A stretch of DNA of 64,000 bases, taken from Thermodesulfobacteriota bacterium (GTDB taxonomy: Bacteria; Desulfobacterota_D; UBA1144; Nemesobacterales; Mycalebacteriaceae). The translations under genes and the position numbers were made by a program. The stretch covers positions 1,088,001 through 1,152,000 of the forward strand of contig OZ245366.1 of assembly GCA_965226585.1 (NCBI GenBank), written 5' to 3'. Under the pieces are notes generated by a model. That model worked only from the letters and a program-made list of their open reading frames with translations, was not told the DNA's origin and made no database searches. Below, piece after piece: positions 27,964 through 45,970 of the stretch. Position 1 is the stretch's first letter; each line of letters opens with the position of its first letter.

Positions 27964-28659
27964 TTACTTCCTTTTTCTCCCTGAAGACGCGGAGCTTTTG
28001 CCTTTCGGTTTTGCCGGAGTTTTGGGCGCGGGTTTGGATTTTTTCGGAGCGGGTTTGGGCTTGGGAGCGGGTTTTGCCGCCTTCTTCACCTGTTTCTTCA
28101 CGGGCGCGGGAGCCGCCTTTTTTGGAGCGGGCTTTTTCTTCGGAGCCGGTTTCGCTGAAGGCTTGGGCTTTGCCGCAGGCTTGGGCTTTGCCACAGGTTT
28201 GGGCTTTGCCGCAGGTTTAGGCTTTGCCGCAGGCTTAGGCTTTGCCGCAGGCTTAGGCTTTGCCGCAGGTTTAGGCTTTGCCGCAGGTTTGGGCTTTGCC
28301 GCAGGCTTAGGTTTCGCGGCGGGTTTTGCCGTCGGTTTTGGCTTCGCTGAAGAGGCGGGTTTGGAAACCGGCTGGGCGGGCGGCTTGGAGGTGAAAATAT
28401 CCACTACCTTGTCGCGAAGTTCAGGGTGAGCAACCGTGAGCTCTATCTCTATCTCCTGCGTTTTCTCGCCAATAACAACGAATATCGGCACTATGCCTAT
28501 GAAAGTGGTTTGCTTTTTATCGCCGTCAACTCTTTCAAAGTCGAGAGCGGACATCAGTTTTTTCGGAAAACTCTGGAGCAAGGTTTCGCCAAGGTCAATG
28601 CTCTGCTGTGGAAGAAGCCCGTCCTGACTGATGCTAATCTTTATTGAAGTAGGTTTCAT
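27964..28659 (-). CDS. Protein with unknown N-terminal domain and histone H1-like Ala/Lys/Pro-rich tail
   Basis: AKPKPA repeats and basic C-terminus; start placed at MKPTSIK to avoid overlap with the divergent AAA gene. Confidence 0.75.
   Translation of the reverse strand: MKPTSIKISISQDGLLPQQSIDLGETLLQSFPKKLMSALDFERVDGDKKQTTFIGIVPIFVVIGEKTQEIEIELTVAHPELRDKVVDIFTSKPPAQPVSKPASSAKPKPTAKPAAKPKPAAKPKPAAKPKPAAKPKPAAKPKPAAKPKPAAKPKPVAKPKPAAKPKPSAKPAPKKKPAPKKAAPAPVKKQVKKAAKPAPKPKPAPKKSKPAPKTPAKPKGKSSASSGRKRK
28156..28317. repeat. Nine tandem 18-bp units encoding AKPKP(A/V/S)
   Basis: Units of the form CGCAGGYTTRGGCTTTGC with mostly synonymous variation. Confidence 0.95.
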
Positions 28660-28806
28660 CTGCGGGTGTAAGGGTTTTATGCTAACAAATATCCGTTCAC
28701 AAATCAAGAACTGAAAAAGCGCGGGCGGCGGACTGAAACCCTCGGAGAGTTTGCGAAAGTGGAATGTTGCCGTATAGTTATCTCCGGCTGGTATTTCTGC
28801 GGGAAG

Positions 28807-29757
28807 ATGAGCGATAAAATTTTTCAGCAAATCCGGAAGGAGCTCGACAGGCACATCATAGGCCACAGCGAGGTCAAGACCGCCCTGCTCCTCGGTCTTC
28901 TGTCAAGAGAACACATATACATAGAGGGAACTCCGGGAACCGCGAAAACGATGCTTTCCGAGATTGTGGCGGCGTGCGCGCAGTTGAAATTTTTCTTCTA
29001 TCAGCTCCACAGAGACACACGCCTTTCGGAACTTGTGGGCGATATGGTTATCTCCAAAGAGTCTGTGGATGAGGAAGAGATAATACGGCAGAAGATAGTG
29101 AAGGGAGGAATTCTCACCTCGGAAATTTGCCTGCTTGACGACATCTCAAGGGCTCCCGGAGAATCTTTGAACGTGCTTCTCCGCATACTTAACGAAAGGA
29201 AATTTTTTGAAGACCCTCTGCCCCTCATGACGGCGATTGCCACAAGCAACCCCACGGCGGACGAATACTACAACGAGCCGCTTGACCCCGCCAACCTCGA
29301 CAGATTTGTGCTTCAAATAAAGTCATTCGGCACGGCATACAAACGCGACTGGGATCTTGCGGGCGACATAATCTCCCTCTACTCGTCAAGAGACGAGGAA
29401 GTGGAAGTCCCCAAACTTCTGGAAAGAGGAGCATTGGACAAACTGCATGAGCAGGTCAAGGCGGCTCCCATACCCAAAGCGGTGCAGAACGGGCTTAAAG
29501 AGTTCATCCGCATACTTGTTGAGGATTTCGGGCTGGACGAAACCAACTCACTTATCTCAGACAGAACCTTCTTTGTGAAGGCGCTTAAAATAATCAGGGC
29601 TTACGCCGTGCTGAACGGAAGAAAATCCTGCACAATGCAAGACCTTGAAGTGCTGAAATACATAACCGTTTTCCGCATTCCGCCGGAAGTTTACGCTCAG
29701 ATTGACGCAATTCTTGAGCAGATAAAATCTAAAAAAAAAACCGTGACGAAGAGCTGA
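28807..29757 (+). CDS. MoxR/RavA-type AAA+ ATPase (upstream frame of a possible frameshifted AAA-VWA gene)
   Basis: GTPGTAKT Walker A, CLLDDISR Walker B, LNVLLRILNER, IATSN, LDRF. Confidence 0.9.
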   Translation: MSDKIFQQIRKELDRHIIGHSEVKTALLLGLLSREHIYIEGTPGTAKTMLSEIVAACAQLKFFFYQLHRDTRLSELVGDMVISKESVDEEEIIRQKIVKGGILTSEICLLDDISRAPGESLNVLLRILNERKFFEDPLPLMTAIATSNPTADEYYNEPLDPANLDRFVLQIKSFGTAYKRDWDLAGDIISLYSSRDEEVEVPKLLERGALDKLHEQVKAAPIPKAVQNGLKEFIRILVEDFGLDETNSLISDRTFFVKALKIIRAYAVLNGRKSCTMQDLEVLKYITVFRIPPEVYAQIDAILEQIKSKKKTVTKS

Positions 29758-31064
29758 ACCAGCCCCCTCCTGAACAGGAAAATCAAGAGCCGGAATCTCT
29801 GTCTGAGTTCGACAAAGACCTCCCCGAAGAAGGCGACAAAGAGGAACTTCCGGATGAAGATTCGGAAAAAGAAGCGGAAGAAGAGCACGACTCTGCGCGG
29901 GAAACTTTCTTTCAGGTTATGAAAGACATGCAGGATGAAAAGATGCAGCCGCCCGAAGGAATGGATATTCCTTCAGACCCCAAAGGACAGCCCGACCAGA
30001 ATGCGGGCGAAGACGAGCAGAAGGAGTTGTCTGAAAAGACGACTTCAAGCAAATCCGTGCGTCCGGGAGACATTGAGGAGAACGCGGCGGCGGCATACAG
30101 AAACCATGAGACGGCGAAAAACATCAAACGGATAATGAAAGTTCTTGAGGGAAGTTTCCAGAGAAGCATGGCGACAAAAACCAGTCACCCCGGCGGAATG
30201 CCGAGGCGGTGGAAAAAGATGAACACCCTTGAACTGGAAGACGCTGACCCTCTGGAGTTTTTCCTGTGGTCTGACACCACCTCGCCGACGCTTCCCCGGG
30301 TTCAGATGAGAGAAAAAGAGTCCACAGGCGGGGAGATAGCGATTTTGCGGGACGTGAGCACCTCAATGATGGGCATTTACAGCGAGTGGGCGTCATCGGT
30401 TGTGCGCGGCGTTATGGAACTTGCCAGAAAAAAGAACATGAGGGTCGGCTACCTTGAGTTCAACCACAAAGCAGACCCTTACCGCAGGCAGAAAGGCAGA
30501 AGAAGTTTCTTCACCAGAGAATACCCCTGGCTTCTGGACATAGCGTCAGAAACGGACTGCTCCGGCAACACGAATTACGAGGAAGCCCTGAAAAACACGG
30601 TTGAGGAGTTCAAGGGGCGCGGACGGAGAAACAAGCACATCCTTTTCTTAACAGACGGCATACCGACTTCGGGAGACATATCTTTCGGCGATGACAATTC
30701 TCATCAGGCGGGGCGTCCGAACAGCGATGAGAAACAGCTGATTGAGTACTTGAATGCGGGGCGGCTTGAGCCGGGGGAAAAACCGCGCCCCTTGCGTGAA
30801 ATAGTAAAAAGAACACAGCGGCTCGGCATCCGCATACACTCAATTTTTATCGGCTCTAAAACGTATCCAAAAATCCTGCAGAGAATTTCAGAGGAGACAA
30901 GCGGCACTCAGTTTGTCGCTTTCAGAAACGATGACAGAATTATGCAGGTTGAGCGCAGGGACAAGTTTATGTCCAAACTTCTGGGAAAAGATATTGACAG
31001 TTTCGACCCGATAAAAGCCGCGTTCACACAGCGCCGCATTCACACCGTAACGGGAAAACTTTAA
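29733..31064 (+). CDS. Acidic linker plus VWA (MIDAS) domain, ViaA-like; frame open from 29733, first ATG at 29919
   Basis: DVSTSM (DxSxS), SGNTNY, ILFLTDG; the frame opens inside the A10 run directly after a TAA at 29730. Confidence 0.85.
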   Translation, partial: KKNRDEELNQPPPEQENQEPESLSEFDKDLPEEGDKEELPDEDSEKEAEEEHDSARETFFQVMKDMQDEKMQPPEGMDIPSDPKGQPDQNAGEDEQKELSEKTTSSKSVRPGDIEENAAAAYRNHETAKNIKRIMKVLEGSFQRSMATKTSHPGGMPRRWKKMNTLELEDADPLEFFLWSDTTSPTLPRVQMREKESTGGEIAILRDVSTSMMGIYSEWASSVVRGVMELARKKNMRVGYLEFNHKADPYRRQKGRRSFFTREYPWLLDIASETDCSGNTNYEEALKNTVEEFKGRGRRNKHILFLTDGIPTSGDISFGDDNSHQAGRPNSDEKQLIEYLNAGRLEPGEKPRPLREIVKRTQRLGIRIHSIFIGSKTYPKILQRISEETSGTQFVAFRNDDRIMQVERRDKFMSKLLGKDIDSFDPIKAAFTQRRIHTVTGKL

Positions 31065-45109: not shown

Positions 45110-45398
45110 AATCGAATTAAGGAAGAGCGCGGTAAAAGAACTTGAGTCGCTTTCCAATGGCAAAACGAGGAGACAGGTGGCGGCAAGAATACAGTCTCTG
45201 TTGACTAATCCAAAATCCGCCCGTGGTGTGGAGAAACTTTCTGAAACCAACAAATTCAAGGATTGCTACAAAATAAGGCAGGGAAATTATAGGGTTGTTT
45301 ATACGGTTGATGACGAGAAGAAACTGGTTGTGATAGAGAGAATAAGGCACAGGAAAGACGCATTTGGGGAGCGATTAACTAAGGGATTGAGCAAAAAG
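45096..45398 (+). CDS. RelE/ParE family toxin; no stop codon, reads in frame into the downstream ATPase
   Basis: [37 protein letters not shown]. Confidence 0.8.
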
Positions 45399-45970
45399 AT
45401 GAACAATCAGCCGGTTTGCACAATTATAGCGGGGCCTAACGGCGCGGGGAAAACCACTTTTGCTATGGAGTTTCTGCCGCAGACAAATTGCGGAATTTTT
45501 CTGAACGCCGACATGATAGCCACAGCGCTTTCGCCGCTCGGGGAAAGTGAGAAACAACTGCTGAAAGCGGGGAAACTCTTCCTGCAAGAGGTTGAGGATT
45601 GTATTGAGAAAAGAGAGAACTTTGCTTTTGAAACAACCCTTTCCGGCAAGGCGCATTTGGGAGGGTTCACCGTATGCTGGCTGACGGCTGGCGCGTGAAT
45701 ATGATTTATTTGTGGATACCGAGTGCCGAGACTTCGCTAAACCGCGTCCGCGAGCGCGTCCGGCAAGGCGGGCATAATGTGCCGGAGAAGGATATACGCA
45801 GACGATATGGAAGAACTTTGCGGAACTTGTTTGAATATGCGGCGGTTTGCAGTGAGTTTGAGTGCATTGACAGTTCCAAAAGAGAGAAAAAACTCATCTT
45901 TAGGCAGAAGGGAGAAAGTGTTACAGTATTGAATCAGGAGTTATACAATAGACTGAAACGTGAGGCTAAG
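45399..45970 (+). pseudogene. Zeta-toxin-like P-loop kinase/ATPase split by a frameshift near 45660
   Basis: [24 protein letters not shown] in one frame; RVRERVRQGGHNVP..IRRRY in the -1 frame. Confidence 0.75.

Follow-up and report, generated by a model that had tools for sequence, protein, structure and literature searches.

The window, the whole stretch of DNA analysed here, spans 64,000 nucleotides of a bacterial genome. At positions 28807–31064 of the plus strand it carries an ATPase frame and a VWA frame that meet at a homopolymer of ten adenines (A10), in the sequence context TCT AAA AAA AAA ACC. The features of the locus are listed here, with the evidence for each in brackets.

28751..28778, plus strand: weak sigma-70-like promoter match, TTGCGA-16-TATAGT, 9/12 (just 5' of the gene)
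28807..29757, plus strand: zero-frame ORF of a 316-residue MoxR-type AAA+ ATPase, the predicted short product (ORF list, Pfam, PDB, motifs)
29730..29732, plus strand: TAA shutting the −1 frame just ahead of the A10 run (sequence; same place in 55 of the 94 −1 orthologs)
29731..29740, plus strand: A10 slippery run, the predicted recoding site (A9–A12 in orthologs, codon-usage test)
29733..30100, plus strand: acidic low-complexity linker in the −1 frame, with conserved SEF and ARxxFF motifs (alignment, codon-position pattern)
29755..29757, plus strand: zero-frame TGA ending the short product, 4 codons past the run (2–8 codons past the run in 94/94 −1 copies)
30101..31064, plus strand: finger-like segment and VWA domain in the −1 frame, end of the predicted 752-residue long product (Pfam, MIDAS; the linker/VWA boundary at about 30100 is approximate)

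The zero-frame ORF terminates in the residues IKSKKKTVTKS. The −1 frame is open from 29733 to 31064, over 443 codons, and its first ATG, at 29919, lies 62 codons in. The TAA at 29730–29732 blocks this frame, so that a shift is possible only on or after the A10 run. The run is flanked by stops in the unproductive frames, 4 and 1 codons past it. The original prediction had described the A10 run, the −1 frame closed before it and open after it, the zero-frame stop and the ATG at 29919, and all of these are confirmed in the letters. It had also held that this ATG has no good Shine–Dalgarno sequence; indeed, no Shine–Dalgarno-like pairing is found ahead of it (duplex energy +0.4 kcal/mol). The methionine is unconserved and is replaced by leucine or lysine in relatives. 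The promoter match does not rise above chance, with 2 such sites against 1.6 expected in shuffles.

The gene is flanked by genes on the opposite strand, with a convergent proB downstream and variable genes upstream. No operon partner is found at the locus or in the neighbourhoods of the relatives compared. The divergent upstream gene (27964–28428, minus strand) ends in a long, histone-like Ala/Lys/Pro repeat tail, a part for which Pfam gives no match.

Only three A or T runs of at least ten occur in the 1.48-Mb genome. The chance that a run of eight extends to nine is 0.10 for A and 0.06 for T, against about 0.39 in short runs. Judged against the trend of the shorter runs, the genome is depleted in runs of at least nine. 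Two of the three A10 runs lie at the AAA/linker junctions of unrelated AAA-VWA genes. The third (G000:C1:113067-113076) lies in frame within a minus-strand gene that we take to be murD-like.

The first frame matches the Pfam families bpMoxR (5e-19), AAA_5 (6e-18) and AAA_lid_8, and its AAA part matches the PDB sequences of 2r44 (7e-16) and RavA (2e-10). The ATPase motifs comprise Walker A GTPGTAKT, Walker B LLDD, sensor-1 ATSNP and the arginine finger LDRF. The −1 frame matches VWA, VWA_2 and VWA_3. The MIDAS residues of the VWA domain (DVSTS, T and TDG) occupy columns that are invariant in 20 family members, and the VWA part has no match among PDB sequences. Both by sequence and by the fold of a modelled natural fusion, the nearest solved relatives of the AAA domain are the Cytophaga MoxR protein 2r44 and RavA. 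Residues 315–380 of the modelled fusion have low pLDDT, and the linker is predicted to be disordered apart from one helix.

The locus had been assigned to a MoxR/RavA–ViaA-type chaperone. The MoxR-type AAA domain with its lid stands, whereas membership in RavA/ViaA is rejected: the NCBIfam RavA profile scores 52.5 bits where 681 are required, the match stops at profile position 284 of 498, and the C-terminal domains of RavA are missing. In a quick tree with long branches and composition bias, the family groups as a separate clade (62 rows, SH-aLRT 94). By its sequence, the gene represents a separate MoxR-type subfamily, neither RavA nor ChlD.

The length of the run is reproduced in independent data. 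Contigs of four sequencing runs from three studies align to the stretch with 0 gaps and 0 inserted letters. Two of them, X1 and X4, each span it as one piece; X4 comes from another study and carries 17 substitutions, and X1 is possibly the source data of the assembly itself. Record 6 of X3 and record 11 of X5 also cross the A10 run. Contigs lose rare variants, and minor run-length variants could be hidden in them. The choice between A10 and A11 had been set beforehand as a check, and contigs of all three studies read A10. A homopolymer assembly error within a plain fused gene, raised as a caveat in the original prediction, had in its favour that the genome is a single contig and that a second frame break lies near 45660. 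It falls on the gapless contigs of three studies and on the same offset in 94 genomes, which leave it a negligible probability. The apparent base loss near 45660 is a real frame break in the window, but it lies outside any homopolymer. The affected gene (45398–45970) encodes a small P-loop ATPase that we take to belong to a zeta-toxin-like family, and it is probably either a pseudogene or the site of an isolated error.

The gene is found in 117 of the 120 genomes of the phylum (Dadabacteria), including 19/19 genomes of about 1 Mb, with one match in each genome, so that no separate short paralog was found. In two of the 117 copies the contig ends ahead of the junction, leaving 115 that can be scored. 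A run of A9–A12 is present at the AAA/linker junction in 115/115. The VWA frame is offset by −1 in 94 copies and by +1 in three; 17 copies are in-frame fusions and one is degraded (G060, which accounts for the eighteenth copy scored in frame). In all 94 −1 copies the −1 frame is open for at least 300 codons. The in-frame copies, in turn, have a −1-frame stop 0–14 codons past the run. The −1 state prevails in clades f8 (36/37), f9 (17/18) and f2 (28/31), and split copies also occur in f3, f6 and f1; the in-frame clades are f7 (13/14) and f5 (2/2). The three +1 copies are singletons, each with one A fewer than its relatives, and could reflect errors in the consensus. The phase of the run varies (0, 1 and 2), and copies of f2 and f9 have an in-frame A_AAA_AAG at its end. 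The original prediction had turned on whether orthologs keep the run, the frame offset and the nearby zero-frame stop. They do so in 115/115, 94/115 and 94/94 copies, respectively, and the set mixes fused with split genes.

The linker has the substitution pattern of a coding sequence. Over the 60 codons past the run, the third codon position of the VWA frame is the most variable in 5/5 families tested (0.07, 0.05 and 0.33 for the three positions in f8). The first ATG past the run wanders from codon 11 to codon 131 across families; in f8 it lies 11 codons past the run in 27/36 copies. The natural fusions align through the linker. These comparisons indicate that protein-level selection acts on the −1 frame of the linker, ahead of any start codon that is conserved. 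Given the codon pattern and the wandering first ATG, the linker is likely translated from the run onward.

The 17 in-frame copies reach the VWA domain without any shift, yet their junction lysines are encoded by AAA only. Among 23 conserved lysine columns, the three that are always AAA constitute the junction KKK, while the copies differ at four-fold sites with a median of 0.69, synonymous positions being saturated. One in-frame copy uses AAA at 4 of its 50 other lysines, yet has three in succession at the junction. This codon choice argues that the A-run is selected as DNA. Seven fused genes termed Tectomicrobia-like, being close to proteins named Tectomicrobia, display a related feature. The arginine before their KKK is always CGA or AGA, which extends the run to 10, and these codons serve for 0–4 of the 45–50 other arginines; stops lie near the run in both shifted frames. 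Within Dadabacteria, 16/17 in-frame copies contain a +1-frame TAG 7–8 codons past the run (background for such codons 0.28). In gene-by-gene shuffles, the early stops in the +1 frame of the in-frame copies are not significant (P 0.12–1.0), and the copies are kin.

Among 45 metagenome loci compared, a run of at least nine is present in 24 and absent from 14; the other 7 break off before that point. Of the 120 short relatives listed from the protein database, 110 terminate in KK and a short tail. Nineteen loci, chosen from 79 fetched, were inspected for a partner gene. In eight of them (L160, L172, L174–L178 and L188), a fused AAA-VWA gene without the A-run is directly followed by an ATPase-only gene of the same family. 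The sensor-1 asparagine is lost and the arginine finger kept in the five complete aligned long subunits and in L194, whose long gene is cut off. The same sensor-1 decay is seen in 11 similar long proteins from a representative search. In the quick tree the AAA domains of the two-gene long subunits sit on long branches; the stand-alone ATPase genes keep all motifs. In the same tree the stand-alone ATPase from L160 does not cluster with the rest, so that the two-gene state may have more than one origin. Lineages without the run thus add an ATPase-only gene, in the manner of chlD plus chlI, which suggests that a short and a long subunit are both required by the machine. L182–L185, which are fused or intact-looking and have no run, run counter to a universal rule. 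Longer fused relatives without a run (650–1000 residues; L182, L184, L185, P0244, P0249 and P0250) are possibly eukaryotic, and some of the longer run-less relatives have N-terminal extensions or split frames.

We infer the following mechanism. The AAA and VWA frames belong to a single gene whose ATPase/linker junction holds the conserved A10 run, and RNA polymerase likely slips there. The unslipped message would yield the 316-residue ATPase, and a message with one extra A would yield the 752-residue ATPase-linker-VWA protein. The two products would likely assemble together as a MoxR-type ring in which short subunits predominate and long ones are few, and the MIDAS of the long subunit would hold a client during its remodelling by the ring. 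NorQD is reported to contain one VWA partner per AAA hexamer (PMC9976466, PMC13036017), and by analogy the adaptor would here be provided by long subunits that are in the minority. A complex prediction for the short and long subunits of L174 gave no informative model (score 0.02). That two functional products arise by either slipping route is highly probable, and we put the polymerase-slippage form at about an even chance. The reading of the locus as a recoded two-product gene, advanced in the original prediction, gains support from the A10 run in three studies, its presence in 115/115 copies and the selection on the linker, the products themselves being predicted.

The locus might instead comprise two ordinary genes, with the VWA protein starting internally at ATG 29919 or a later methionine and no fusion made. 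An in-frame ATG does exist, a methionine in an M-x-P-P motif is common but not universal, and most f8 copies have an ATG shortly past the run. However, the position of the first ATG shifts among families, the one at 29919 lacks a Shine–Dalgarno sequence, the conserved 60 codons lie upstream of the starts, and natural fusions align across the linker, which together make this reading very improbable; an added internal start may exist beside the fusion. Somewhat less remote, though still unlikely, is that the long protein alone matters, with slippage setting its level or rescuing an old frameshift and the short product being waste. The 17 Dadabacteria copies and many outside relatives fused in frame would fit this, and the short product is known here from sequence alone. 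On the other hand, the run is kept against codon usage in the in-frame copies, run-less lineages add a separate ATPase-only gene, and the KK ending with a short tail recurs in the great majority of the short relatives listed. Phase variation, in which the DNA run length would toggle cells between split and fused states, has the slimmest chance among these three. Single-A variants do occur within genera (L006, L034, L079, L092 and L121), and the chlD gene of the genus exists in both states; but the frame state follows clades, which argues against DNA phase variation, and no length variant is present in the contigs of the three studies.

Ribosomes shifting by −1 on A_AAA_AAA(/G), the mechanism put forward for chlD, could also yield the same two products; this is a serious possibility, though we hold it below an even chance, and both routes may combine. 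A −1 shift is what 94 of the 97 offset copies need. It would by itself account for all stable lineages, giving the long product in the −1 copies and, through the −1-frame stop close to the run, the short product in the in-frame copies. One conserved shift direction is a criterion for ribosomal frameshifting, and chlD cassettes shifted by 10–63%, more with a longer run (both PMC3711429). The in-frame A_AAA_AAG of f2 and f9 is a strong ribosomal motif. The polymerase route is further weakened by the rarity of +1 copies (3/115, singletons, perhaps consensus errors), by the non-significance, gene by gene, of the early stops in in-frame copies, and by the intact-looking AAA domains of L182–L185 without a run. 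Moreover, the third A10 run is tolerated in frame in the murD-like, presumably essential gene. Against the ribosomal route, the run is never shorter than nine in 115 genomes, although a heptamer would serve the ribosome, and its phase varies. No conserved downstream hairpin is found (mean z −0.45; 8/58 below −2; +0.9 for the copy in the window), nor is an upstream Shine–Dalgarno stimulator enriched across the copies examined. Efficient slippage is reported for runs of nine As (PMC5009743, PMC1088944), and the depletion of runs of at least nine in the genome also speaks for the polymerase. Since the run never falls below nine and neither a hairpin nor a Shine–Dalgarno stimulator is conserved, polymerase slippage is slightly favoured over ribosomal frameshifting.

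Two candidate clients of the proposed slippage-made machine were considered. This genome contains cobN, and a true chlD-type gene lies in its cob operon (G000:C1:76404-78149, L229). That gene is in frame and has an A10 run (77302–77311) at its AAA/linker junction; no separate chlI was found. A cobaltochelatase motor is unlikely as the main role of the window gene on account of this separate chlD. Across the phylum, chlD was found in 6/120 genomes, all of this genus, and its junction has A8–A10 in 6/6, four of these copies being −1 and two in frame. A molybdenum hydroxylase was suggested by the coxS/coxL-like genes that follow four two-gene loci (L172, L174, L175 and L188; ndk follows at L176). 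As a Dadabacteria client it is dismissed, MoCoBD_1 being present in 0/120 phylum genomes. The genome also encodes an AAA and VWA pair, presumably CoxD/CoxE-like (G000:C1:950665-954813), though no molybdenum hydroxylase domain was found in either genome or phylum. A further pair, at G000:C1:226792-230157 and adjoining a Fic-like gene, we take to be McrB/McrC-like.

Programmed recoding is rare in chromosomal, non-mobile genes, and the predicted recoding site described here sits in a single-copy gene of 117/120 phylum genomes. Databases list an ATPase and a truncated hypothetical gene, so that predicted proteomes lack the long protein. Three states occur naturally (−1 split, in frame with the run, and two genes without it) and offer a ready comparison of how AAA+/VWA stoichiometry is set, and a short cassette makes polymerase and ribosome slippage directly testable in a laboratory strain. 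The recoding strategy is known from chlD and dnaX and was not found in print for this MoxR family. In the literature searched on frameshifting or slippage in MoxR, VWA or Dadabacteria genes the family is undescribed; the supplement of PMC3711429, possibly listing GeneTack clusters, lay outside this scope. This analysis adds the two-gene form of the family, the test of codon use in fused copies and a second slippery gene in the same genome. A broader picture, which we offer tentatively and rate a little under an even chance, is that a MoxR subfamily sets its motor/adaptor ratio by polymerase slippage, independently of chlD. Slippage would have been replaced at least twice by duplication with decay of the long-subunit ATPase, the two being interchangeable routes to one hetero-hexamer. 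The machine would be core to the phylum down to 1-Mb marine genomes, have spread to Tectomicrobia and others, and serve an essential client, and two unrelated AAA-VWA genes of the genus would share the A-run device.

The MoxR AAA+/VWA chaperones, including RavA–ViaA, NorQD, CbbQO, CobST and CoxDE (PMC9976466, PMC13036017, bioRxiv 10.64898/2026.10.09.757910), resemble the window gene in their MoxR AAA domain with lid and in a VWA partner with a MIDAS. Here, however, the VWA partner carries an AAA domain as well and is encoded together with the ATPase in one gene. In RavA–ViaA the VWA partner is separate and lacks an AAA domain, whereas the present family has natural fusions and long subunits that keep theirs. 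The window protein also lacks the C-terminal domains of RavA, a 498-residue protein, and its Walker B motif is LLDD, as throughout the family, in place of the usual DE of MoxR and RavA.

The closest parallel in gene layout is fs-chlD of Mg- and Co-chelatases, an AAA-linker-VWA gene frameshifted at poly-A (PMC3711429, PMC9227772; Antonov 2020 as cited in PMC9227772). As originally predicted, the window gene has the ChlD/BchD arrangement of AAA, acidic linker and VWA split at poly-A, with the site at the junction. In both cases −1 predominates and in-frame fusions occur, and a two-gene form (chlD plus chlI) is found where the signal is lost. Unlike fs-chlD, the window gene shows no significant match to the ChlD of the same genome (BLASTP best E 0.014). 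The Mg_chelatase family PF01078 gives no match in the window protein, and none of its six PDB matches is ChlI or ChlD. Its family occurs in 117/120 phylum genomes, against six for chlD, no conserved downstream RNA structure is seen here, and its client is probably no known large chelatase subunit.

In mechanism, the proposed slippage resembles that of Thermus thermophilus dnaX, where slippage on nine As gives two products (PMC1088944, PMC5009743). Both genes combine a run of at least nine As with near stops in both unproductive frames, and in both a short AAA+ subunit and a long one, gamma and tau in dnaX, would come from one gene. The dnaX gene of this genome is one 611-codon frame with no run above six. 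The T. thermophilus protein belongs to another AAA+ clade and does another job, and in the window family most genomes would make the short product by default.
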